The notes under the pieces: model-generated | The model's input: the letters and a program-made list of their open reading frames with translations, nothing else | The model's database searches: none | What the model was told of the DNA's origin: nothing | Translations under genes and position numbers: made by a program | Shown here: positions 1 to 41,092 of the stretch, piece after piece | How positions within the stretch are numbered: the first letter of the stretch is position 1 | How the letters are laid out: the number at the start of each line of letters is the position of its first letter | Source of the DNA: Auanema rhodensis | Lineage: Eukaryota > Animalia > Nematoda | Assembly (NCBI GenBank): GCA_964057225.1 | Contig: CAXKVF010000074.1 | Location: forward strand, 248,001 to 312,000 | Reading direction: 5' to 3' | Length of the DNA: 64,000 nt

Positions 1-3000
1 TGACTTTGAAATTTACGTGAACTTTAATTTATGCTAATTAAATGTACACGTGATGTGCACTTGGTATGTAACTCGCTTCACGTGAAAGATAAAGAGATGC
101 GGTTTTCAAAATTAGATTCCTCATGTCCATATTAGTCTAAAAACAAATTTTTATTGATATTGCTTCATGGTAACCATGACTTTGAAATTTACGTGAACTT
201 TAATTTATGCTAATTAAATGTACACGTGATGTGCACTTGGTGTGTAACTCGCTTCACGTGAAAGATAAAAAGATGCGGTTTTCAAAATTAGATTCCCCAT
301 GTCCATATTAGTCTAAAAACAAATTTTTATTGATATTGGTGCATGGTAACCATGACTTTGAAATTTACGTGAACTTTAATTTATGCTAATTAAATGTACA
401 CGTGATGTGCACTTGGTATGTAACTCGCTTCACGTGAAAGATGAAGAGATGCGGTTTTCAAAATTAGATTCCCCATGTCCATATTAGTCTAAAAACAAAT
501 TTTTATTGATATTGGTTCATGGTAACCATGACTTTGAAATTTACGTGAACTTTCATTTATGCTAATTAAATGTACACGTGATGTGCACTTGGTATGTAAC
601 TCGCTTCACGTGAAAGATAAAGAGATGCGGTTTTCAAAATTAGATTCCCCATGTCCATATTAGTCTAAAAACAAATTTTTATTGATATTGGTGCATGGTA
701 ACCATGACTTTGAAATTTACGTGAACTTTAATTTATGCTAATTAAATGTACACGTGATGTGCACTTGGTATGTAACTCGCTTCACGTGAAAGATGAAGAG
801 ATGCGGTTTTCAAAATTAGATTCCCCATGTCCATATTAGTCTAAAAACAAATTTTTATTGATATTGGTGCATGGTAACCATGACTTTGAAATTTACGTGA
901 ACTTTAATTTATGCTAATTAAATGTACACGTGATGTGCACTTGGTATGCAACTCGCTTCACGTGAAAGATAAAGAGATGCGGTTTTCAAAATTAGATTTC
1001 CCATGTCCATATTAGTCTAAAAACAAATTTTTATTGATATTGGTGCATGGTAACCATGACTTTGAAATTTACGTGAACTTCAATTTATGCTAATTAAATG
1101 TACACGTGATGTGCACTTGGTATGTAACTCGCTTCACGTGAAAGATAAAGAGATGCGGTTTTCAAAATTAGATTCCCCATGTCCATATTAGTCTAAAAAC
1201 AAATTTTTATTGATATTGGTTCATGGTAACCATGACTTTGAAATTTACGTGAACTTTAATTTATGCTAATTAAATGTACACGTGATGTGCACTTGGTATG
1301 TAACTCGCTTCACGTGAAAGATAAAGAGATGCGGTTTTCAAAATTAGATTCCCCATGTCCATATTAGTCTAAAAACAAATTTTTATTGATATTGGTGCAT
1401 GGTAACCATGACTTTGAAATTTACGTGAACTTTAATTTATGCTAATTAAATGTACACGTGATGTGCACTTGGTATGTAACTCGCTTCACGTGAAAGATGA
1501 AGAGATGCCGTTTTCAAAATTAGATTCCCCATGTCCATATTAGTCTAAAAACAAATTTTTATTGATATTGGTGCATGGTAACCATGACTTTGAAATTTAC
1601 GTGAACTTTAATTTATGCTAATTAAATGTACACGTGATGTGCACTTGGTATGTAACTCGCTTCACGTGAAAGATAAAGAGATGCGGTTTTCAAAATTAGA
1701 TTCCCCATGTCCATATTAGTCTAAAAACAAATTTTTATTGATATTGGTGCATGGTAACCATGACTTTGAAATTTACGTGAACTTTAATTTATGCTAATTA
1801 AATGTACACGTGATGTGCACTTGGTATGTAACTCGCTTCACGTGAAAGATAAAGAGATGCGGTTTTCAAAATTAGATTCCCCATGTCCATATTAGTCTTA
1901 AAACAAATTTTTATTGATATTGGTGCATGGTAACCATGACTTTGAAATTTACGTGAACTTTAATTTATGCTAATTAAATGTACACGTGATGTGCACTTGG
2001 TATGTAACTCGCTTCACGTGAAAGATAAAGAGATGCGGTTTTCAAAATTAGATTCCCCATGTCCATATTAGTCTAAAAACAAATTTTTATTGATATTGGT
2101 GCATGGTAACCATGACTTTGAAATTTACGTGAACTTTAATTTATGCTAATTAAATGTACACGTGATGTGCACTTGGTATGTAACTCGCTTCACGTGAAAG
2201 ATAAAGAGATGCGGTTTTCAAAATTAGATTCCCCATGTCCATATTAGTCTAAAAACAAATTTTTATTGATATTGGTTCATGGTAACCATGACTTTGAAAT
2301 TTACGTGAACTTTAATTAATGCTAATTAAATGTACACGTGATGTGCACTTGGTTTGTAACTCGCTTCACGTGAAAGATAAAGAGATCCGGTTTTCAAAAT
2401 TAGATTCCCCATGTCCATATTAGTCTAAAAACAAATTTTTATTGATATTGCTTCATGGTAACCATGACTTTGAAATTTACGTGAACTTTAATTTATGCTA
2501 ATTAAATGTACACGTGATGTGCACTTGGTATGTAACTCGCTTCACGTGAAAGATAAAGAGATGCGGTTTTCAAAATTAGATTTCCCATGTCCATATTAGT
2601 CTAAAAACAAATTTTTATTGATATTGGTTCATGGTAACCATAACTTTGAATTTTACGTGAACTTTAATTTATGCTAATTAAATGTACACGTGATGTGCAC
2701 TTGGTATGTAACTCGCTTCACGTGAAAGATAAAGAAATGCGGTTTTCAAAATTAGATTCCCCATGTCCATATTAGTCTAAAAACAAATTTTTATTGATAT
2801 TGGTTCATGGTAACCATGACTTTGAAATTTACGTGAACTTTAATTTATGCTAATTAAATGTACACGTGATGTGCACTTGGTATGTAACTCGCTTCACGTG
2901 AAAGATAAAGAGATGCGGTTTTCAAAATTAGATTCCCTATGTCCATATTAGTCTAAAAACAAATTTTTATTGATATTGCTTCATGGTAACCATGACTTTG

Positions 3001-4307
3001 AAATTTACGTGAACTTTAATTTATGCTAATTAAATGTACACGTGATGTGCACTTGGTATGTAACTCGCTTCACGTGAAAGATAAAAAGATGCGGTTTTCA
3101 AAATTAGATTCTTCATGTCCATATTAGTCTAAAAACAAATTTTTATTGATATTGGTGCATGGTAACCATGACTTTGAAATTTACGTGAACTTTAATTTAT
3201 GCTAATTAAATGTACACGTGATGTGCACTTGGTATGTAACTCGCTTCACGTGAAAGATGAAGAGATGCGGTTTTCAAAATTAGATTCCCCATGTCCATAT
3301 TAGTCTAAAAACAAATTTTTATTGATATTGGTTCATGGTAACCATGACTTTGAAATTTACGTGAACTTTCATTTATGCTAATTAAATGTACACGTGATGT
3401 GCACTTGGTATGTAACTCGCTTCACGTGAAAGATAAAGAGATGCGGTTTTCAAAATTAGATTCCCCATGTCCATATTAGTCTAAAAACAAATTTTTATTG
3501 ATATTGGTGCATGGTAACCATGACTTTAAAATTTACGTGAACTTTAATTTATGCTAATTAAATGTACACGTGATGTGCACTTGGTATGTAACTCGCTTCT
3601 CGTGAAAGATAAAGAGATGCGGTTTTCAAAATTAGATTCCCCATGTCCATATTAGTCTAAAAACAAATTTTTATTGATATTGGTTCATGGTAACCATGAC
3701 TTTGAAATTTACGTGAACTTTAATTTATGCCAATTAAATGTACACGTGATGTGCACTTGGTATGTAACTCGCTTCACGTGAAAGATAAAGAGATGCGGTT
3801 TTCAAAATTAGATTCCCCATGTCCATATTAGTCTAAAAACAAATTTTTATTGATATTGGTGCATGGTAACCATGACTTTGAAATTTACGTGAACTTTAAT
3901 TTATGCTAATTAAATGTACACGTGATGTGCACTTGGTATGTAACTCGCTTCAGGTGAAAGATAAAGAGATGCGGTTTTCAAAATTAGATTCCCCATGTCC
4001 ATATTAGTCTAAAAACAAATTTTTATTGATATTGGTTCATGGTAACCATGACTTTGAATTTTACGTGAACTTTAATTTATGCTAATTAAATGTACACGTG
4101 ATGTGCACTTGGTATGTAACTCGCTTCACGTGAAAGATAAAGAGATGCGGTTTTCAAAATTAGATTCCCCATGTCCATATTAGTCTAAAAACAAATTTTT
4201 ATTGATATTGGTTCATGGTAACCATGACTTTGAATTTTACGTGAACTTTAATTTATGCTAATTAAATGTACACGTGATGTGCACTTGGTATGTAACTCGC
4301 TTCACGT
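1..4307 (+). repeat. 176-bp tandem satellite array, forward orientation (24 monomers + 83 bp)
   Basis: Monomer TGACTTTGAAATTTACGTGAAC...CATGGTAACCA recurs at 1, 177, ... 4225 with an exact 176-bp period and only single-base variants; ends at ...TTCACGT (monomer position 83). Confidence 0.99.
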
Positions 4308-4826
4308 AAAGCTACTACCATTATCGGTTATCATACTCATTGGTGGTCCATATATGAAAACAAATCTAATTACAAACGCTTTTGTGATTTCAGTAGCCGT
4401 TTGTGCTATTAATGGGCAAGTTGTTCCCCATTTACTAAAAGCATCTTGAATACTCAAGATGTATCGATGTCCATCATTAGTGCGAGGTAAAGGACCTAGT
4501 ATATCTACATGAATACGATCAAATGGCTTTTCGGGTATAAAAAATCTTCCCATAGGTTGAATATACGATTGGTGTGGGTTAGATTTCCTACTTGCACATT
4601 TTGTACAACGATTAATAAATTCAGTTATTTGTGGAACCATATTAGTCCAAAAGAATCGTCGTCGAATCGCATCAGTAGTTTTATTTATACCTAGGTGTGC
4701 ACCAATTTTGGAATCTTCATGAAAAAACTTGATAACAACATCAGTTATTTTGTCGTTACGAGGCAAAATAATAGATGGTTTCAATAATTTTTCGCTTGTT
4801 TTGCATGTAATATGCCTTCTCGTTCT
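4302..4826 (-). pseudogene. Integrase N-terminal fragment, in -1 frame relative to the polyprotein and truncated after the second catalytic Asp
   Basis: HHCC zinc finger (FHED...AHLG...CTKC), RIHVDILGP (D1) and ITDNG (D2); catalytic E absent; the stop codon is supplied by satellite sequence at 4302-4304. Confidence 0.93.
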
Positions 4827-7800
4827 TCATACCGGTCTGATATATTAGCCGGACAGTTATCATTATTAATTTGAGAAAGTGCTTCGCGAATCCAGGGAAC
4901 TCCAGCTTGAACTTTCCGTATTTCTTCACAATTTAGTTGGTCAATAGAAGAAATAGTTGTGATATGAGCAATAAAAGCATCAACAGGTTTTACTTTGTCC
5001 TTTGGTTTAGTAGGACGACTGTCATTTGCTTCGTTTCCTATATACCTGGAGAGAGCATCACAGACACTGTTTAATTTGCCAGGACGATATTCAATCTTTA
5101 TGTTGAAATCTTGTATCATTAGTTGATACTTGGCTAATCTACCTATGAGATCTTTACGCGACATTAAACTGGTTAATGGTCGGTGATCTGTGATAACTGT
5201 GGTAGGTACTCCTAATACATAGGTACGGAATTGTTGAAGAGCAAAGACTAAACCGAGTGCTTCAACTTCAATAGGAGGATATTTCCGTTCCGCTGGAGTC
5301 AACTTTCTACTAGCGAACGCAATCGGGTGTAATGGAGAATTTTTCTCTGCTGATTGCAATAAAACTGCTCCCACAGCGATCATACTGCCATCACTTTCTA
5401 TAACAAAAGGTTGGTCTGCTTTAGGAGGTTTCAGTACAGGGGCAGTACACAGTAATGTTTTTAAAGTTTCAAATGCGTCTGCATGTTCCGATTTCCACTC
5501 AAAAGGAGTATCCTTATGTGTTAACTTATACAATGGCTCAGCTATTCCGGCATAATTTTGAATAAACCGTCGAAAATAGTTAGTCATACCTAGAAAGGAT
5601 CTGACAGCCGTAACTGTGCTTGGATTTGGAAATTCGGAAACAGCCTGTATTTTAGCAGGATCTGGTTTAACACCATTTCTACCTATTATAAAACCCAAAA
5701 ACTTTACTTCAGTGGCTGCAAAGCAACATTTAGATAACTTAATTTTTAACCCTAGTTCAGTGACCTTTTTCAGCACTTCTTGTATATCTCTTAAATGTTC
5801 TTCAGCTGAGTTCGAAATTATTAGCAAATCATCTAGATATACAAACAGTTTGCATCTAACAAGAGATTGCAAGTATCGTACTGCGGATTGAAAAGTGTGT
5901 GGCGCTCCACACAATCCCATAGGCATTCGGCAATACTGATAGGTACCTGATGGAGTGGTAAAAGCAGTTAAGTATCTATCTGAGCGTTTCAACGGTATTT
6001 GGAAGAAACCAGAAATGAGATCAAAATTCGAAAAGAACTGAGCTCCAGCCGCTAAGTCTATGATATCAGGAATGTGTGGGATGCTGTATGTTTGTTTCTT
6101 AGTAACACTATTCAATGCTCTAAAGTCAGTAACGAACCGGAAAGAATTATCTTTCTTTTTCACAAAAACAACCGGACTAGTGAAAGTAGCCGTCGAATTT
6201 TCGATTATACCTTGCGACAACATTTCTTTCACTTGCCGTTCTACTTCTTCTTGCTTACCCAATGGTACTCTGTAAGATCTACTTTTTGGAAAATCCATAT
6301 CAGATCTTATAGGAATGGCATGTTCAACTGGTCCGCAAAAGAGACCAATATTATGATCATGGTTGAAAAATGCCGTTTGGTTTTCCTTAATGATTGTGAT
6401 CAGATTTTTCTTCATTTTATGAGACAGAGTGCAAGAATTGAAGTTCAAATCATCCAAAAGATGCTGAGGAAAAGTTGGTAACTTATCTTCCCAATCAGCT
6501 TCAGGTGGAACATAATCGTTCATAATTTCTTTAGATGCTATAAGTCCTGAACCAATGTGGTCATTTTTATTAATTTTAATTGGCTTTGAAGAATTGTTTG
6601 ATACTACCATAGTAATAGGAAAAGGTCCTATGGCGGCATCTGGAATTGATATAGGACCTGTGCTAGATTTTAAAAGAGCATATTGATCAAAATCTAATTC
6701 TGGTCCTGTTTGCAAAGATATGTGGGAGGTACTGTGTGGTGGAACTGTTACTGTGGACAAACTTATGATATTTACTGTTTTAGTTGTGGTTTTATATGCA
6801 AAACAACCAGGTTTTACTAAGGGTGTTTCCATATTACCAACAATCAACTTTCCTTTACATAGTTTTAATGTAGTAAATATCTCTCTTTCTTCCAACGTAC
6901 GCATAAAATCAGTACCAAGTAACATTTGTCCTGGACAGTCATTGTCTTCAGATATTAAAAATTCGTGTTCCACTTGGTAACCTGCTATACCCACATCTAA
7001 CTTGCATTTTCCCACAAAGCGAAACTCTGATCCATTTGCAGTGGATGCAGATTTAGAATATTTTGTAAAATATTGTCTTCCAATATATGCCAATGTGGAG
7101 AACGGAATATATGAGACCGTAGCTCCAGAATCCCATAATGCTAACAGTCCTCTACCTTCAATGTCAATATGAACAAACGGTAACATGTGTCCATTTTTCT
7201 TTGTTGTTGTGTGACATACAAAAGGTATGGCTAAAGGAATGTAAGTTATGATGGTGGGAAAATAGCTCCGCATCAATTCATCACTAACTGTTTCATGAAT
7301 CTCATCTCCCTCAAGTGGTGGAGCTGTTGGGCTCAACATGATATGGTTTATTTTTAACATAGAAGTAGGGGAGAGATAACATTTTATAGTGAAATATAAT
7401 GCTATCATTAGACATAATATCAGAGTTATACAACCGATGGTAATGAGTGTTCGTTCAATTGAACCTATACAAAAGTCAATGAACAGATCCCAGTTGGAGA
7501 AAACAATTTTCCTGGCATCTCTTATAAGTTTACTTCCTTTCAAGATGAAAGAGGAAATTTGAGGCCAATCATGTGAACGAGAAATTACGCGGAGAAGATC
7601 ATGGTGAGGTGAAGTAGATAAACTATAACCATAAGTTAATCCAATAGATAGGGCTAAGGATTTTTCAGTCGAATTTTCAAACAAATTCCGCCCTGTGAAT
7701 CGAAGTTTACTCAATTCAGCATAATGATCATGTTTTTCTGAATGAATACTATCTACTTTATGTGTGTCACCTTTATAATCTCTCCATGTTCCATTTTCAT

Positions 7801-10800
7801 ACCAAATCTCTGTCTCTTTGTGTTCACAATTGATCTCATGTCCTTCAGTGCTCAAATCGTAGCTATCGATAGGAGCAAAGAATAATTGTTTATCGTGTGT
7901 TAAAACAGGGGTCTCTGCATAACATTTATCATTGTAAGAATGATTACGATAAATGAAATGTGGTTCTATTTCCTGACAAGTTGTTATTTTTAAAACATTT
8001 CTTCCAACAAATCGGGCAACGATATCATTCCGCTGAAGCATAGCTCTTACTCCTATTGTAGGATGTATACGTAATATAGCTTGCCAGCTTTTTACAGTTT
8101 CCATTTGAGATTTACAGATGGTATGAAACTGTTGATGAAATTCGTCAATTATGGAGAGACGCGCTTTCTCAAACCCATAATTCAACTTATTATCTATTAT
8201 CGTTTTAGTTTTATGCTCTGATTTGTGGAGAACATTGTCATATACTTCTGCTACATACAACTCTCGACCTCTCTCGTACGCATTAGGGGTAGGAGTTGTT
8301 AAACTACGAATTGTAGTTTTGGTGGAAGTTATTGGGGTTACAGTAGTATGCTGTACCATATTTTTATCAGTTGTGATTTGAGTTTTAACCCAACTTATGA
8401 ATTCTAAAACTTCTGTTTTATTGAATTTAGGATTTTCCTGTGGGTATTCGATGGACTGTGGAGGAAATCCATAATATGCTGTACTATTCTTTGTATAAAG
8501 GTTGTGATAGTCAGGCAGCTTGGATATAATTGCTAAATCTTGCTCTTGGTTATTTCTAACAGTAGCATCAGCTTTTTGTTGTCGACTGACTTGCATGTCA
8601 CGAGATATTTGTTCTTTTCCCGATTGTTGTTGGATCATGAATAACATGCCTTGAGCAGTTGCAATAATTTCAGATTGATTCATATTTCCACTGCGTGGTA
8701 ATATAGATGGATATAAGGCTCTTGCCAACTGTTCAATTGATGGAACTGTTTGTGTACCATCAAGAATTGTGGCTTGATATACTACTGCGTGAGCCATTCC
8801 TCGAAAGAAATCTTCTATGGATGTTGTAGATTTCATCAAAGATCTTTTTAACCGAGGAACTTCTATACGACGAGCTACTTGAGTGATAAGATCATCCAAT
8901 TTCATGCTATTAATCATCTGTCTAGTAGCCAGTTTAATTTCCTCTATACCCATACATTGTAAAATCAAAAGATTGGGATCTTTGAAATTATTAGACTTTG
9001 CCCAGTTAGTTATATGATCTTTTGTCAATCCTAAACTAACAATTGTGTCAATGAACAGTGGATTATCTATCGCGAATTGGAGCAAACTCTCATAAGATGA
9101 TGTAGCTGCATATCTCATATATTTTGCGTAAAACTTAGTGATAGATGCAGATCCAAAAATGAAAGTAGGTCTTAGAAATGGAAACGCATATGGTTGGGAT
9201 TTCGCATTAACAAAAAGATAATCATCACTGAAAGAGCGATGTTTTTGAGGTAATGCATTACGTTTATTTCTGCGTCTATCAGCATTAAGCAAAGTATTGG
9301 AAAGGTCAAGCAAATTATAAACACGGGGATATGCTGTGAATCGGATAATTGCCTCAGAAGATGATTCAAAAACAGCGAATTCGAAACAAGATTGAACGTG
9401 AGCGGATGTGGAATGATTTTGGAGAACAAAAGCGCTTTCAATAGAGTGAACTAGAAGAATATGATCACCCAACATGGCGGAGAAGGGGCCAAGTTTTTGA
9501 TAGTGACAGACAACTGATAGGATAGGTGGTTGCCAGATAACTGCACCTTCACCAGTTGCACAAAACCCTTCATTTCCTTTACAATTATCAGTATTTATAA
9601 ATAAGTCTGATACAATGTGATCTTCTTTCAATCTAGTTATTATCCCTCGCTTCAATACAAATTGTTCAATTTCTACACATTCTTCAGTGGACCAAGAGCG
9701 AGTTGGATTATGCTCGTTTAATGGTGTTTCAAAAACTGAATGCTGTTGGGCATTCATGATTTTATCATTCCACATACGATTTCTATGTGCTCGAACACAA
9801 TCTTTCTTATCTACTGTTTCAATATGAGAGAATGTGGTGTTACGATCTCTCAAAAACATGAAATCTCTCACACAGCTTTTATACTTTTTCACATAGCATT
9901 TCCATGCTTCCCATGACTCTATCTCAGCCTTTGGTAGATATATTTCTACCTCAACACTGTGAGCCTTTTCAATTTCTGCCTTATGGCAGCCTGTGACCAC
10001 AGGAGGTGTTACTAATATACCCCCTTCAGATTGAGCGCAAATCTGATATTTTGCCGACCCAAAGGGAAGGCATGAGAGTGCCAATAAAGTCAGGCACAAC
10101 GTGACCGGTGGCATGAATGGGGTCGCTACGCTGTATACCCTTGAGTTACCATTCCCATTGGCTGATGGTCTTTGTCTTCTTGGGGAACTAGGCCTAGGGT
10201 TCCAAGACGAGCTATTGGCATTTCTGCCATTGGCAAATGGGCGGTTTCCCGGGTTAGGACGCCTATTCATATTCCCGTTCTGCGAGTTATTATTATTATA
10301 ACGTACGGCAGAAGGTCGCTCTCTCTCTCGCTCATAATCATTAGAGCCATTATTGTGCTGAGTCCAGTTATTATTTTTTTTATTATTTTTATTATTTTTA
10401 TAATTTTTATTATTATTATTATTCCTACTTCTTTCTCTTTCTTCACTAAAGCTTAATTTATGTTGTAAAGCATTTATGAGCTCCTTCAAGGTGCTGGTGT
10501 CTTCATTTCTTTTCATGAAGCTATTCCGAACGCCTTCTTCAAACCTAGCTAATTTCTTAGCTTGTTCATAAGTGGCGGGGTTTTTAGTTAAAACCGCAAT
10601 ACCCAGTTCCTCTTTTAAACCATTTAAAAATGCCGTTTTCAACATTGGTTCCCGCTCGGGATCCATTGGTGACATTATGGTGCTTGCCATTCTCTCTAAT
10701 TCCATACTAAAATCGAGAACAGATTTATCTCCTTGTTGTATTCGATGAATAAGCGCTATGGTGAAATTTTTATCTGTTTTAGGCGCTAAAAGCTCAGTGA

Positions 10801-11260
10801 GCTGATCCATCAAAACAATCCATGGGCCATTAGTTCTTATGCCACTAGGAATACTATTATACAAGGAGAGAGCTGTTTCATTTGATTCCAAAAGAAGAGG
10901 CAAAATTAATAGTCTCTCAGGTAAGCTTAGATTCATAACATTAAAAAATCTATTTAAAGATTCAACAAAAGAACGAAAGCTACGAGAGCCGTCATACCTG
11001 GGACAGAGATGGCAATTCAAAATAGTTGCCATATTTCTAGAGGGTGGAGCAACATTAGAATTAGGAGATGGAGAGGTAGGAGTCATTTTTCTTTCAAAAG
11101 CTTTAGTTATAGCAGCGGGCCACCGACTTGGTGATCTATTTCGTACTGTAGTAGGTGCCCGAGGTGTTTCCTCAGTGATGGCCTTTCTGCTTTTACTTCT
11201 CGTTCTAATTGTTAGAGAAGAAGAGTGAGAAGAAGAAGAGGAATCACCTTCTTCTCTCAA
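4781..11260 (-). CDS. Gag-Env(gB-like)-Pol polyprotein, 2159 aa (ORF-track start is TTG; first ATGs are at 11086 and 11032)
   Basis: Single uninterrupted ORF: Gag motifs (YDGSRSF, QQGDKSVLDF, FLNGL), signal peptide, Cys-rich ectodomain, TM, protease DSGA, RT YLDD, RNase H ESDGS...DALSR. Confidence 0.93.
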   Translation of the reverse strand: MREEGDSSSSSHSSSLTIRTRSKSRKAITEETPRAPTTVRNRSPSRWPAAITKAFERKMTPTSPSPNSNVAPPSRNMATILNCHLCPRYDGSRSFRSFVESLNRFFNVMNLSLPERLLILPLLLESNETALSLYNSIPSGIRTNGPWIVLMDQLTELLAPKTDKNFTIALIHRIQQGDKSVLDFSMELERMASTIMSPMDPEREPMLKTAFLNGLKEELGIAVLTKNPATYEQAKKLARFEEGVRNSFMKRNEDTSTLKELINALQHKLSFSEERERSRNNNNNKNYKNNKNNKKNNNWTQHNNGSNDYERERERPSAVRYNNNNSQNGNMNRRPNPGNRPFANGRNANSSSWNPRPSSPRRQRPSANGNGNSRVYSVATPFMPPVTLCLTLLALSCLPFGSAKYQICAQSEGGILVTPPVVTGCHKAEIEKAHSVEVEIYLPKAEIESWEAWKCYVKKYKSCVRDFMFLRDRNTTFSHIETVDKKDCVRAHRNRMWNDKIMNAQQHSVFETPLNEHNPTRSWSTEECVEIEQFVLKRGIITRLKEDHIVSDLFINTDNCKGNEGFCATGEGAVIWQPPILSVVCHYQKLGPFSAMLGDHILLVHSIESAFVLQNHSTSAHVQSCFEFAVFESSSEAIIRFTAYPRVYNLLDLSNTLLNADRRRNKRNALPQKHRSFSDDYLFVNAKSQPYAFPFLRPTFIFGSASITKFYAKYMRYAATSSYESLLQFAIDNPLFIDTIVSLGLTKDHITNWAKSNNFKDPNLLILQCMGIEEIKLATRQMINSMKLDDLITQVARRIEVPRLKRSLMKSTTSIEDFFRGMAHAVVYQATILDGTQTVPSIEQLARALYPSILPRSGNMNQSEIIATAQGMLFMIQQQSGKEQISRDMQVSRQQKADATVRNNQEQDLAIISKLPDYHNLYTKNSTAYYGFPPQSIEYPQENPKFNKTEVLEFISWVKTQITTDKNMVQHTTVTPITSTKTTIRSLTTPTPNAYERGRELYVAEVYDNVLHKSEHKTKTIIDNKLNYGFEKARLSIIDEFHQQFHTICKSQMETVKSWQAILRIHPTIGVRAMLQRNDIVARFVGRNVLKITTCQEIEPHFIYRNHSYNDKCYAETPVLTHDKQLFFAPIDSYDLSTEGHEINCEHKETEIWYENGTWRDYKGDTHKVDSIHSEKHDHYAELSKLRFTGRNLFENSTEKSLALSIGLTYGYSLSTSPHHDLLRVISRSHDWPQISSFILKGSKLIRDARKIVFSNWDLFIDFCIGSIERTLITIGCITLILCLMIALYFTIKCYLSPTSMLKINHIMLSPTAPPLEGDEIHETVSDELMRSYFPTIITYIPLAIPFVCHTTTKKNGHMLPFVHIDIEGRGLLALWDSGATVSYIPFSTLAYIGRQYFTKYSKSASTANGSEFRFVGKCKLDVGIAGYQVEHEFLISEDNDCPGQMLLGTDFMRTLEEREIFTTLKLCKGKLIVGNMETPLVKPGCFAYKTTTKTVNIISLSTVTVPPHSTSHISLQTGPELDFDQYALLKSSTGPISIPDAAIGPFPITMVVSNNSSKPIKINKNDHIGSGLIASKEIMNDYVPPEADWEDKLPTFPQHLLDDLNFNSCTLSHKMKKNLITIIKENQTAFFNHDHNIGLFCGPVEHAIPIRSDMDFPKSRSYRVPLGKQEEVERQVKEMLSQGIIENSTATFTSPVVFVKKKDNSFRFVTDFRALNSVTKKQTYSIPHIPDIIDLAAGAQFFSNFDLISGFFQIPLKRSDRYLTAFTTPSGTYQYCRMPMGLCGAPHTFQSAVRYLQSLVRCKLFVYLDDLLIISNSAEEHLRDIQEVLKKVTELGLKIKLSKCCFAATEVKFLGFIIGRNGVKPDPAKIQAVSEFPNPSTVTAVRSFLGMTNYFRRFIQNYAGIAEPLYKLTHKDTPFEWKSEHADAFETLKTLLCTAPVLKPPKADQPFVIESDGSMIAVGAVLLQSAEKNSPLHPIAFASRKLTPAERKYPPIEVEALGLVFALQQFRTYVLGVPTTVITDHRPLTSLMSRKDLIGRLAKYQLMIQDFNIKIEYRPGKLNSVCDALSRYIGNEANDSRPTKPKDKVKPVDAFIAHITTISSIDQLNCEEIRKVQAGVPWIREALSQINNDNCPANISDRYEEREGILHAKQAKNY
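5045..5410 (-). other. RNase H domain
   Basis: FVIESDGS...AVL.Q...PIAFASRKL...E.LG...TDHRPL...YRPGK.N..CDALSR. Confidence 0.95.
5690..6320 (-). other. Reverse transcriptase domain (Gypsy type)
   Basis: SPVVFVKKKD, FVTDFRALN, FDLISGFFQI, MPMGLCGAP, YLDD (5828-5839), KCCF...FLG. Confidence 0.97.
6900..7190 (-). other. Retropepsin-type aspartic protease domain
   Basis: ALWDSGATVS (catalytic D at 7130-7132) and downstream MLLGTDF motif. Confidence 0.9.
7385..10114 (-). other. Env-like type I membrane glycoprotein domain, class III (herpes gB-like) fusogen candidate
   Basis: Signal peptide MPPVTLCLTLLALSCLPFGSA (10052-10114); many Cys and N-x-S/T sequons; furin sites RRRNKR (9260-9277) and RLKR (8843-8854); gB-like C-x2-Q...W...HP...AR-x2-G...C...CY...P...C motif (7826-8116); TM TLITIGCITLILCLMIALYFTI (7385-7450). 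Confidence 0.8.
10115..11032 (-). other. gag: Gag (capsid-like) domain with Asn/Arg-rich low-complexity C-terminus; no CCHC knuckle visible
   Basis: PRYDGSRSFRSFVESL...IQQGDKSVLDFSMELERMA...AFLNGL resembles the retrotransposon gag domain; followed by NNNNNKNYKNNKNNKKNNN and R/N/P-rich segment. Confidence 0.8.
10365..10422 (-). repeat. AAT/AAA-rich coding microsatellite (poly-Asn/Lys) in Gag
   Basis: TTATTATTTTT-type repeats on + strand encoding NNNNNKNYKNNKNNKKNNN. Confidence 0.8.
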
Positions 11261-12400
11261 AAATTCAAAAGGAGAGAGGTAGGTGGATGGAGTATTTAAG
11301 TTTTTAGAATTAAATTCAAAAACTTGGCGTACCTCTGGTGATCCTTGTTCCTGATCTTTGTTTTCCTCGCTGATGTCCGAGTCCGACAGGGTGGCTGGTG
11401 AATACAGTTAGATGAATATAAGAGCGCGTACTGGAAGCAACTAGACTCCAGTAAAAACGTTTGTGACAATGGCGTCTGATGAAGGAGGATCGTTGAAGCT
11501 TCAAGCTCCGCCTCCAGCCATGTGTCACGACACCAGATGTTAGCGCTTATGGTAAACAACCATTGACCGTCTGTCGTGATATTTGAATATTATAATCACT
11601 TATGTCAGCTTAGAGACAAATAAGGAATCACAGATGGTGCCTTAAGCCTGTTTGAAAACTTTTGAATTTTAACAGCTGTTATTGACTACACATATCGAAC
11701 AGCTGGTACGCGTGGGCCAACTATTTGAATGTGAGTAAGCTTAAAGTAAACAAAAATGTCTCATCTCGTATATTAAGTTCAATTTTATAAAGTTTATTAA
11801 GATTTGTAGAAAGAATTTCAAAATAAATCTTAATTAAGATAATTTTTAATTTAATTTCAAAAGATTTAGAAGGTAATTTAAGATTGATATAGGAGTTTAA
11901 ATTCAGTAATCTGTCAGTAATATAGGAAAAAGGAAACGTTGGCAGACGTAGAGTGGACTTGGGTGGGTAGGAATTTAAATATTCTTATTATCTCTGAACT
12001 AATAAGAAAAGAGTTAACAGGAGTAGAACCCTGATGAACCCTTGGATGTGAATCAAAATTAATAAATCGTAAATAAAATTATCCCAACAGCCTCCAGCTT
12101 CCAAACAACTCAGCTAAAAAGTGAGCTCTGTTGCCACACTGGACATTCACATCATAAAGTAATGAATCAAAATAGCACGCGCGTGCATAACAAAAAGGTA
12201 ACGCTCGTCAAAACTATTGTCTGATAGTTTCCCCAAACGTCTCAGACACCTCCCAGTTTTTGTTGAGCGGAGGAGAAGTGGTAGCCAAAATAATTTTTGG
12301 GGAAATCATGGTGCACGGCTCGGTTACTCCTCACTGTTGGGTAATTAAGTCCAAAAGTCTCGTAAACTTGCTGTCAATAAATTAACAGTAGAGTAAGCAA
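11261..12400 (-). other. Long 5' leader/untranslated region of the retroelement
   Basis: About 1.1 kb between PBS and polyprotein ORF with only short ORFs and an AT-rich centre. Confidence 0.6.
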
Positions 12401-12413
12401 GGTGGAACCTCCA
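12401..12413 (-). promoter_or_regulatory. Primer-binding site complementary to the 3' end of tRNA-Gln
   Basis: Minus strand TGGAGGTTCCACC is complementary to the ...GGUGGAACCUCCA-3' end of eukaryotic tRNA-Gln; directly abuts the inferred LTR end. Confidence 0.85.
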
Positions 12414-12794
12414 CGTTACATATCGTTTCTTCCCGTCTTTTCATGGTCGGAAGATATATGTACTTCTACCTTGTTCCTTAGGTAGGCAGACCCGAACGCC
12501 CCGATTTCCTTATTAAGACAAATACTCAAAGAGAAAAGGATTCATTATCAGATAACAAGAAAATACAATATAAGAATTACATTAAGAAAGAATATAAAGA
12601 GATATGATGAAGTATTAAATAGAGTATATATATAGATGATATAGAGATGAGACTCACATGACTATAAGACAACCTATCTGGGTTAGGCCAGAAGCAAGAG
12701 TGCCATGTGTGTCCCATGTTGTGGGCGGGGCTTGTTCAGGCTCCCGCTATTTGAATAGCGCGCACATGTTTACCATGCGCTTGCAGATGTGACA
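12414..12794 (-). repeat. 5' LTR (about 381 bp), the only LTR copy retained
   Basis: Starts TGTCACAT at the satellite junction and ends ATGTAACG (imperfect terminal inverted repeat) immediately before the PBS; TATATATA tract near 12625-12634; no second copy to confirm the bounds. Confidence 0.75.
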
Positions 12795-22298: not shown

Positions 22299-25200
22299 GC
22301 GAGTTACATACCAAGTGCACATCACGTGTACATTTAATTAGCATAAATTAAAGTTCACGTAAATTTTGCGAGTTACATACCAAGTGCACATCACGTGTAC
22401 ATTTAATTAGCATAAATTAAAGTTCACGTAAATTTCAAAGTCATGGTTACCATGAACCAATATCAAGAAAAATTTGTTTTTAGACTAATATGGACATGGG
22501 GAATCTAATTTTGAAAACCGCATCTCTTTATCTTTCACGTGAAGCGAGTTACATACCAAGTGCACATCACGTGTACATTTAATTAGCATAAATTAAAGTT
22601 CACGTAAATTTCAAAGTCATGGTTACCATGCACCAATATCAATAAAAATTTGTTTTAAGACTAATATGGACATGGGGAATCTAATTTTGAAAACCGCATC
22701 TCTTTATCTTTCACGTGAAGCGAGTTACATACCAAGTGCACATCACGTGTACATTTAATTAGCATAAATTAAAGTTCACGTAAATTTCAAAGTCATGGTT
22801 ACCATGCACCAATATCAATAAAAATTTGTTTTTAGACTAATATGGACATGGGGAATCTAATTTTGAAAACCGCATCTCTTTATCTTTCACGTGAAGCGAG
22901 TTACATACCAAGTGCACATCACGTGTACATTTAATTAGCATAAATTAAAGTTCACGTAAATTTCAAAGTCATGGTTACCATGCACCAATATCAATAAAAA
23001 TTTGTTTTTAGACTAATATGGACATGGGGAATCTAATTTTGAAAACGGCATCTCTTCATCTTTCACGTGAAGCGAGTTACATACCAAGTGCACATCACGT
23101 GTACATTTAATTAGCATAAATTAAAGTTCACGTAAATTTCAAAGTCATGGTTACCATGCACCAATATCAATAAAAATTTGTTTTTAGACTAATATGGACA
23201 TGGGGAATCTAATTTTGAAAACCGCATCTCTTTATCTTTCACGTGAAGCGAGTTACATACCAAGTGCACATCACGTGTACATTTAATTAGCATAAATTAA
23301 AGTTCACGTAAATTTCAAAGTCATGGTTACCATGAACCAATATCAATAAAAATTTGTTTTTAGACTAATATGGACATGGGGAATCTAATTTTGAAAACCG
23401 CATCTCTTTATCTTTCACGTGAAGCGAGTTACATACCAAGTGCACATCACGTGTACATTTAATTAGCATAAATTGAAGTTCACGTAAATTTCAAAGTCAT
23501 GGTTACCATGCACCAATATCAATAAAAATTTGTTTTTAGACTAATATGGACATGGGGAATCTAATTTTGAAAACCGCATCTCTTCATCTTTCACGTGAAG
23601 CGAGTTACATACCAAGTGCACATCACGTGTACATTTAATTAGCATAAATTAAAGTTCACGTAAATTTCAAAGTCATGGTTACCATGCATTAATATCAATA
23701 AAAATTTGTTTTTAGACTAATATGGACATGGGGAATCTAATTTTGAAAACCGCATCTCTTTATCTTTCACGTGAAGCGAGTTACATACCAAGTGCACATC
23801 ACGTGTACATTTAATTGGCATAAATTAAAGTTCACGTAAATTTCAAAGTCATGGTTACCATGAACCAATATCAATAAAAATTTGTTTTTAGACTAATATG
23901 GACATGGGGAATCTAATTTTGAAAACCGCATCTCTTTATCTTTCACGAGAAGCGAGTTACATACCAAGTGCACATCACGTGTACATTTAATTAGCATAAA
24001 TTAAAGTTCACGTAAATTTTAAAGTCATGGTTACCATGCACCAATATCAATAAAAATTTGTTTTTAGACTAATATGGACATGGGGAATCTAATTTTGAAA
24101 ACCGCATCTCTTTATCTTTCACGTGAAGCGAGTTACATACCAAGTGCACATCACGTGTACATTTAATTAGCATAAATGAAAGTTCACGTAAATTTCAAAG
24201 TCATGGTTACCATGAACCAATATCAATAAAAATTTGTTTTTAGACTAATATGGACATGGGGAATCTAATTTTGAAAACCGCATCTCTTCATCTTTCACGT
24301 GAAGCGAGTTACATACCAAGTGCACATCACGTGTACATTTAATTAGCATAAATTAAAGTTCACGTAAATTTCAAAGTCATGGTTACCATGCACCAATATC
24401 AATAAAAATTTGTTTTTAGACTAATATGGACATGGGGAATCTAATTTTGAAAACCGCATCTTTTTATCTTTCACGTGAAGCGAGTTACATACCAAGTGCA
24501 CATCACGTGTACATTTAATTAGCATAAATTAAAGTTCACGTAAATTTCAAAGTCATGGTTACCATGAAGCAATATCAATAAAAATTTGTTTTTAGACTAA
24601 TATGGACATGGGGAATCTAATTTTGAAAACCGCATCTCTTTATCTTTCACGTGAAGCGAGTTACATACCAAGTGCACATCACGTGTACATTTAATTAGCA
24701 TAAATTAAAGTTCACGTAAATTTCAAAGTCATGGTTACCATGAACCAATATCAATAAAAATTTGTTTTTAGACTAATATGGACATGGGGAATCTAATTTT
24801 GAAAACCGCATTTCTTTATCTTTCACGTGAAGCGAGTTACATACCAAGTGCACATCACGTGTACATTTAATTAGCATAAATTAAAGTTCACGTAAAATTC
24901 AAAGTTATGGTTACCATGAACCAATATCAATAAAAATTTGTTTTTAGACTAATATGGACATGGGAAATCTAATTTTGAAAACCGCATCTCTTTATCTTTC
25001 ACGTGAAGCGAGTTACATACCAAGTGCACATCACGTGTACATTTAATTAGCATAAATTAAAGTTCACGTAAAATTCAAAGTTATGGTTACCATGAACCAA
25101 TATCAATAAAAATTTGTTTTTAGACTAATATGGACATGGGAAATCTAATTTTGAAAACCGCATCTCTTTATCTTTCACGTGAAGCGAGTTACATACCAAG

Positions 25201-41076: not shown

Positions 41077-41092
41077 CTTTAATTTGCATAAA

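Follow-up and report, generated by a model that had tools for sequence, protein, structure and literature searches.

Among retroelements with an envelope gene, those of Nematoda, Bryozoa and Platyhelminthes are described in the available parts of Chary and Hayashi (eLife 2026, PMC13524379) as carrying a gB-type ENV in the order GAG-ENV-POL without being monophyletic; the same source credits Sacco et al. 2022 (J Gen Virol 103:1739) for the nematode GAG-ENV-POL elements, and its supplementary table holds 36 nematode rows. As a case study, we consider a damaged retroelement within 64,000 nucleotides of Auanema rhodensis (assembly GCA_964057225.1, contig CAXKVF010000074.1, positions 248,001 to 312,000 of the forward strand), a stretch that is called the window as a whole and to which all coordinates refer. 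The NERV genes that Sacco and colleagues described reportedly consist of one continuous gag-env-pro-pol open reading frame (ORF) with a nyamivirus-like glycoprotein. With NERV and the nematode GAG-ENV-POL errantiviruses, the element of the window shares a Ty3/gypsy pol, an env between gag and pol, a gB-type class III env and chromadorean relatives, but it differs in that the copy here is broken and truncated. A tRNA-Gln primer site and a long terminal repeat (LTR) of about 380 bp are further shared with the Caenorhabditis rows in the available supplement of PMC13524379.

We consider it highly probable (about 0.9) that this copy is a 3'-truncated, frame-broken Ty3/gypsy element in which one frame holds gag, a gB-type env and pol, likely of the published NERV (GAG-ENV-POL errantivirus) kind. 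Its intact relatives are predicted to produce one membrane-threaded polyprotein, which would bud by way of a PTAP motif behind the env helix. The direct observations that carry this reading are the domain order, two hydrophobic stretches, the gB-like fold of a model, the LTR with its primer site, the placement of the reverse transcriptase (RT) and the recurrence of P[T/S]AP. The 64 kb contain a single long frame, on the minus strand from 11407 to 4781 with 2208 codons between stops, and the plus strand of the window is crowded with stops. An earlier sequence-only reading had reported a stop-free ORF in which an insert separates Gag from protease, RT and RNase H; this ORF is real, and its order is Gag, signal sequence, gB-type class III env, transmembrane helix, protease, RT and RNase H. 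The insert given there as amino acids (aa) 404-1292 corresponds to aa 453-1341 here (an offset of 49), whereas the start given there, 11260, is a TTG and not a start codon, the first in-frame AUG being at 11086. The frame and its enzymatic domains are the following.

4781 to 11407, minus strand: single stop-free frame of 2208 codons, with its first AUG at 11086
6899 to 7171, minus strand: aspartyl protease (Pfam, aa 1413-1503), with DSG at 7132
5684 to 6163, minus strand: RT core (Pfam, aa 1749-1908), with YLDD at 5839
5105 to 5497, minus strand: RNase H (Pfam, aa 1971-2101)
4311 to 4826, minus strand: integrase fragment (Pfam) comprising the H2C2 finger and a portion of the core, in a different frame from the long ORF and truncated by satellite

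The pol order protease-RT-RNase H-integrase, with gypsy-type domains, is that of Ty3/gypsy elements (Metaviridae), and the Pao peptidase gave no match, in contrast to the BEL/Pao proteins scanned. In this copy the frame is continuous from gag to RNase H and broken before the integrase, which lies in a neighbouring frame (4826-4302) and is cut by the satellite at 4311; the 3' LTR is absent. RNase H and integrase stand within one protein in all 11 of the 11 nearest relatives, and the break between them seems private to this copy or its assembly, since contigs of two sequencing runs, X2 and X3, differ from the window in their reading at this point.

The insert is bounded by a predicted signal peptide and a predicted transmembrane helix, as the sequence-only reading had proposed: a hydropathy scan of the whole protein gives exactly two peaks above 1.4, at aa 431-449 and aa 1321-1339, and these border the insert. 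This topology recurs, with a hydrophobic stretch just upstream of env in 58 of 65 gag-env proteins of relatives and, in 66 of 66, a helix that separates env from protease. The parts of Gag, envelope and linker are placed as follows.

10118 to 11086, minus strand: Gag, with a capsid region (Pfam, aa 179-266, 10873-10610) followed by a stretch rich in Asn and Arg, and no CCHC knuckle
10052 to 10117, minus strand: predicted internal signal sequence (aa 431-452; hydropathy, recurring in relatives), cut likely after G-S-A
7448 to 10051, minus strand: env ectodomain of 868 aa, predicted gB-type class III fusogen, carrying a long and variable insertion behind the furin-type site
9260 to 9271, minus strand: furin-type site RNKR (aa 713-716)
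7391 to 7447, minus strand: predicted transmembrane helix (aa 1321-1339; hydropathy)
7319 to 7330, minus strand: PTAP, candidate late domain (aa 1360-1363) in the helix-protease linker, the only P[T/S]AP in the protein

A fold model of aa 453-1320, built from a 43-sequence alignment, has a mean pLDDT of 69.6 and a pTM of 0.49. Compared with the PDB, all 38 rows shown for this model are herpesvirus gB (best E 6e-10), and in a viral library rhabdo-like and nyamivirus glycoproteins come on top (best E 8e-16), which fits the nyamivirus likeness reported for the NERV glycoprotein. A Monjiviricetes fusion family was matched in 11 of the 12 relatives scanned. Judged by the modelled fold, the gB Pfam piece and this family in relatives, the insert between Gag and protease is a class III fusogen, and the sequence-only reading was right to call it a fusogen. 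A furin-type site is present in 51 of the 96 proteins having both env halves. The insertion that follows it is longer than 300 residues (9259-8290, minus strand) and includes a modelled helical sub-domain of moderate confidence; the two conserved env halves are spaced by 8 to 500 residues among the 96 relatives, and an Atlas search with the insertion (ectodomain residues 255-590) gave no usable match. This insertion is a candidate receptor-binding part. A CCHC knuckle was found neither in the Gag of this copy nor in any of the 21 relatives checked for it.

An exhaustive protein search with env gave 266 matches, of which 150 are listed, and the order counts are those of the 150. Env stands before pol in one protein in 49 of these homologues, 27 with gag detected in front and 12 running from gag to integrase; integrase stands before env in five, the three scanned all being BEL/Pao, and no pol is visible in 96. 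The named top env matches are from Auanema, Caenorhabditis and Acrobeloides. A word-based protein search found one relative for env among long proteins and none among env-sized proteins, and a metagenome scan gave 60 pattern matches, none of them confirmed. Going by these sequences, the gag-env-pol order is a family trait. The sequence-only reading had proposed looking at relatives for conservation of the order, and they speak against a one-off rearrangement, a nested insertion or a misassembly in a satellite-embedded copy. The copy is indeed damaged, and the satellite array around it contains inversions, but such an origin of the order is extremely improbable given the 49 homologues with the same order, the alignment of relatives across the env-protease border, and a single X3 contig of 4217 nt that spans 7203-11419 over both env borders (72 low-complexity letters skipped). 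Sequence of the element is present in 15 listed runs (5 organism labels, 4 studies), 11 of them with half of its words or more; no listed contig reaches from env to RT, and X3 is possibly related to the source of the window. Some of the homologues have peculiarities of their own. Three env-before-pol proteins (P0024, P0013 and P0030) each show two protease-like segments in a segment search, and for P0024 Pfam agrees on two proteases and adds an extra H2C2 finger between them. Two gene models, P0166 with elongation-factor GTPase domains on record and P0178 with a phlebovirus-type G2 and a Pao domain on record, are probably joined gene models or nested elements.

Using RT-RNase H as query, 12 matches at 54-67% identity were obtained, all of them named nematode proteins (among the 120 of 733 matches listed). 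We then placed the element in a FastTree RT-RNase H tree of 115 of 268 proteins, from which multi-RT proteins and those without a single RT and RNase H pair were excluded. The query is sister to an Auanema element (support 0.969) in a group of 13 tips (0.999) that unites it with 12 of these nematode proteins, itself nested in a clade of 43 tips (0.853) whose named tips are all nematodes; env stands before pol in 38 of the 43, and the other five start inside env. The hosts in this clade include C. nigoni, C. remanei, C. brenneri, M. enterolobii, G. pallida and A. avenae, which also host published GAG-ENV-POL elements according to the available supplement of PMC13524379. That the element is a lineage of its own, in which the gag-env-pol order arose separately from that of the published nematode elements, is very unlikely: it nests among Caenorhabditis, Auanema and Heterorhabditis elements and has the same primer tRNA, even though GAG-ENV-POL elements are not monophyletic in the available text of PMC13524379 and 10 of the 48 env-before-pol tips lie outside the nematode clade. 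These outside tips (P0010, P0031, P0033, P0052, P0060, P0070, P0073, P0085, P0139 and P0213) may be the bryozoan or flatworm kinds of PMC13524379, or further independent cases. The distinct Metaviridae lineage for which the sequence-only reading saw a candidate has to be given up as a novelty, because the gag-env-pol arrangement of nematode Ty3/gypsy elements is already in print (PMC13524379, available parts), the one description of this order to which the literature searches led. The element is most likely one more damaged copy within a known group, the gene order of which was already known.

Other systems are more distant. The BEL/Pao elements with env share a single polyprotein that includes the envelope, some with the same Monjiviricetes-type glycoprotein, but their order is Gag-Pol-Env with a Pao-type pol and env after integrase, unlike the element here. 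Insect errantiviruses make their env from its own spliced mRNA. These viruses (gypsy, ZAM) have a Ty3/gypsy pol plus env as the element does, but their env is 3' of pol and mostly F-type (PMC13524379, available text). Atlas, one of the BEL/Pao elements with env, differs by a class II env and a Gag with CCHC knuckles, as far as the accessible part of the preprint goes (bioRxiv 10.64898/2026.03.22.711591). Foamy viruses share only the possible splice that skips gag and lands before the protease; they are Retroviridae, with env 3' of pol and a Pol never fused to Gag (PMC7828637, available text). For the element here, a pol mRNA is only a candidate. The structural polyproteins of flaviviruses and alphaviruses are made of capsid, internal signal, lumenal glycoprotein and helix. 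By analogy, the element would share with them this topology, followed by cytosolic enzymes, but the proteins are unrelated, and the element has a class III fusogen, reverse transcription and integration.

The motif behind the envelope helix, P[T/S]AP, binds TSG101 and serves budding in retroviral Gag. It occurs in 20 of 66 helix-to-protease linkers against 0.24 expected from shuffling, and 8 times in the remaining 118,000 residues. With a fixed window of 90 residues it is found in 16 of 72 proteins, and in 13 of 58 once tails more than 40% alike are removed, while none of the three pol-before-env tails (BEL/Pao) and one of 32 env proteins without visible pol have it. As an anagram control, 9 of 11 patterns never occur, and [T/S]APP, which overlaps the motif, occurs 6 times. 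The recurrence of P[T/S]AP at this place suggests an ESCRT-driven budding from the envelope tail. The available main text of PMC13524379 is silent on splicing and budding and on late domains, PTAP and ESCRT, and no paper on splicing or late domains of these elements was found among titles and openings of abstracts, a scope outside which lie most subscription papers, among them Sacco 2022, which may cover both subjects.

From these features a path through the cell can be proposed. Gag would be made in the cytosol and kept at the endoplasmic reticulum by the internal signal sequence, signal peptidase would release the N-terminus of the envelope in the lumen, and the helix would act as a stop-transfer segment, leaving the linker and the enzymes (protease, RT, RNase H, integrase) to hang in the cytosol from the envelope tail. 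Furin would cleave the ectodomain; Gag, which has neither a myristoyl glycine nor a CCHC knuckle, and Pol would be brought to the budding site by their membrane tethers, and PTAP would recruit TSG101/ESCRT-I. Cleavage by the protease of the element, at short (V/I)-N-x-(I/V/L)-like sites beside each anchor, would then free Gag and Pol; these motifs are of the kind found at gypsy protease sites. The pattern (V/I)-N-x-(I/V/L) is present in 51 of 66 helix-to-protease linkers, and (V/I)-(N/Y)-x-(I/V/L) ahead of the signal in 34 of 65 proteins, both being counts without a shuffle control.

A form that skips env, which the sequence-only reading had suggested looking for, does exist, but it also skips gag and stands in DNA. 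A contig joins 11333 to 7230 in four of four DNA runs (X2, X3, X5 and X9; four organism labels, three studies), and the same junction is present in both of the runs guessed as RNA (X12 and X13). The 4102 nt that it omits start with GT and end with AG on the sense strand, and their absence takes out gag, env, helix and PTAP.

11331 to 11332, minus strand: donor-like GT (AG/GTACG), where the stretch absent from the joined form starts
7231 to 7232, minus strand: acceptor-like AG preceded by a run of pyrimidines, where the absent stretch finishes, 44 nt before an in-frame AUG at 7186

By pattern, the donor is one of two such sites in 7.2 kb, and the chance of such GT-AG ends is 0.27% by base make-up, or below 1% when a 2-letter slide is allowed. 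Since the joined form is found in all four DNA runs and bears two linked differences that are not in env-bearing contigs, it is a separate genomic sub-family. Past the junction, the contig extends 255 or more letters beyond the element sequence examined; in X12 and X13 it exits the element about 40 nt later without entering the protease, and the continuation in X9 differs from that in X3, X12 and X13. The parts lacking coverage in X12 and X13 carry no evidential weight. The joined form most likely goes back to the re-integration of a spliced RNA, which then multiplied as a non-autonomous family, rather than being a pol mRNA: an RNA spliced free of gag and env would have been packaged, reverse-transcribed and amplified in trans, leaving a shortened family in genomes.

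Two other origins of the junction have been considered, and we hold both to be improbable. It could be a regulated splice of the full element giving a Pol-only mRNA in the manner of foamy viruses, for which pol mRNA is a precedent (PMC7828637, available text), so that Pol would be untethered and not equimolar with Gag; the ends are canonical, and the acceptor lies inside the linker of 72 residues, with the in-frame AUG of the protease N-terminus 44 nt further on. Run X3 also has a greater depth on the pol path (446) than on the path through env (328), which hints weakly that pol is retained in some joined copies, depth being no copy number. Such an mRNA is at odds with a junction that is present as DNA in all four DNA runs examined with its two linked differences and whose contig in X12 and X13 departs before the protease; moreover, two out-of-frame AUGs, one in a strong context, come before the in-frame one, and the in-frame Met is not conserved in relatives. 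With about the same low probability, the joined form would belong to an mRNA of several exons whose product, an accessory protein, is encoded downstream of pol, in the part lost here, the DNA copies being secondary; the spliced cerv mRNA of Cer1 is a precedent (PMC10309623, available text). The continuation of at least 255 letters outside the element sequence examined would agree with this, as would the depth of the junction contig, the deepest internal contig listed in the runs guessed as RNA (20.7 and 14.3 vs 2-6). At the second exit point, however, the window offers no clear donor, the continuation is not the same in X9 as in X3, X12 and X13, and the RNA status of X12 and X13 is a guess, depth not being a measure of expression. 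Re-integration of a spliced RNA is the origin that we favour.

Several points weigh against the reading as a NERV-type element that would bud through its envelope tail. The Pfam matches to Retrotrans_gag (aa 179-266, E 0.002) and to Glycoprotein_B (aa 1073-1164, E 3e-4) are both below the curated cut-off, a PDB sequence search gave no match, and the fold matches have low TM-scores (0.15-0.25 by query length) on a model of pTM 0.49; for a long multi-domain model such as this one, low TM-scores are expected. The tree contains no published NERV sequences, which makes NERV membership indirect. Among the relatives are several gene models, in which introns or frame changes may go unnoticed, but the proteins fill short contigs in several cases (e.g. 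1601 aa on 5037 nt), which leaves little room for introns. The strict P[T/S]AP is missing from 46 of 66 linkers, kin share the motif, and it could serve endosomal sorting instead. Finally, no run is recorded as RNA, X12 and X13 having been taken as such by guess.

The ends of the element carry further hallmarks of Ty3/gypsy elements: LTR, primer-binding site and polypurine tract were all found, the tract and the 3' LTR in contigs of other copies.

12414 to 12794, minus strand: 5' LTR of 381 bp, starting with TG and with CG at its inner end in this copy instead of the usual CA
12402 to 12413, minus strand: primer-binding site of tRNA-Gln type, matching at 12 of 12 positions, with 0.0002 expected in the element
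11087 to 12401, minus strand: leader of 1315 nt with 9 upstream AUGs

The limits of the LTR rest on the end of the satellite at 12794 and on a break of the X3 contig at 12443, 30 letters before the primer site, together with a step in depth. The primer site corresponds to the tRNA-Gln end given for the C. latens and C. tropicalis elements in the available supplement of PMC13524379. In contigs of X2, X3 and X12, a purine tract runs into the start of the LTR, which indicates that other copies have 3' LTRs. A tRNA-His-like 12-mer at 11535 with one mismatch, which would go with an LTR of 1.26 kb, was rejected as primer site because the contig is unbroken through 11535 and the exact tRNA-Gln site is at the contig break; this 12-mer (11535-11524, minus strand) comes directly after ...TAACA in the leader and is either chance or what is left of another LTR end. 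Ahead of the first AUG, the frame has 107 open codons rich in Ser, Arg and Pro (11407-11087, minus strand); given these and the 9 upstream AUGs of the leader, initiation of gag may depend on splicing, on trans-splicing or on a codon other than AUG.

The surroundings are nearly all a 176-bp satellite, and 4311-12793 is the sole large non-satellite stretch of the window. The satellite has 32% GC and copies 98-99% alike, and fills 1-4310 and 12794-64000, with one change of strand near 22299 and another at 41077-41092. In the runs, its word depth exceeds that of the element more than a thousandfold, which makes it a major repeat of this genome. At the 3' break of the element (4311), the satellite restarts about 35 nt out of phase; the 3' part appears to have been lost by deletion or unequal exchange after insertion into the satellite array.

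What this copy may add to the published elements are details not found in the literature searched, namely the recurring P[T/S]AP in the envelope tail and the GT-AG joined form, and their possible importance lies in how such a polyprotein works, a subject that the available text of PMC13524379 does not address. The hints of an enveloped virus in the sequence are limited to the signal, the helix, the furin-type site and PTAP. We tentatively suggest, at rather less than even odds, that NERV-type elements are budding enveloped viruses built unlike retroviruses, with Gag and Pol as appendages of Env, an ESCRT late domain in the tail of Env and not in Gag, and a foamy-like splice able to release Pol from its membrane tether. 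Splicing from leader to protease, as the GT-AG form indicates, can occur in this family and became fixed in the genome, and a tail motif that recurs at one place would be a cheap and direct handle on whether the nematode elements exit cells as enveloped particles.

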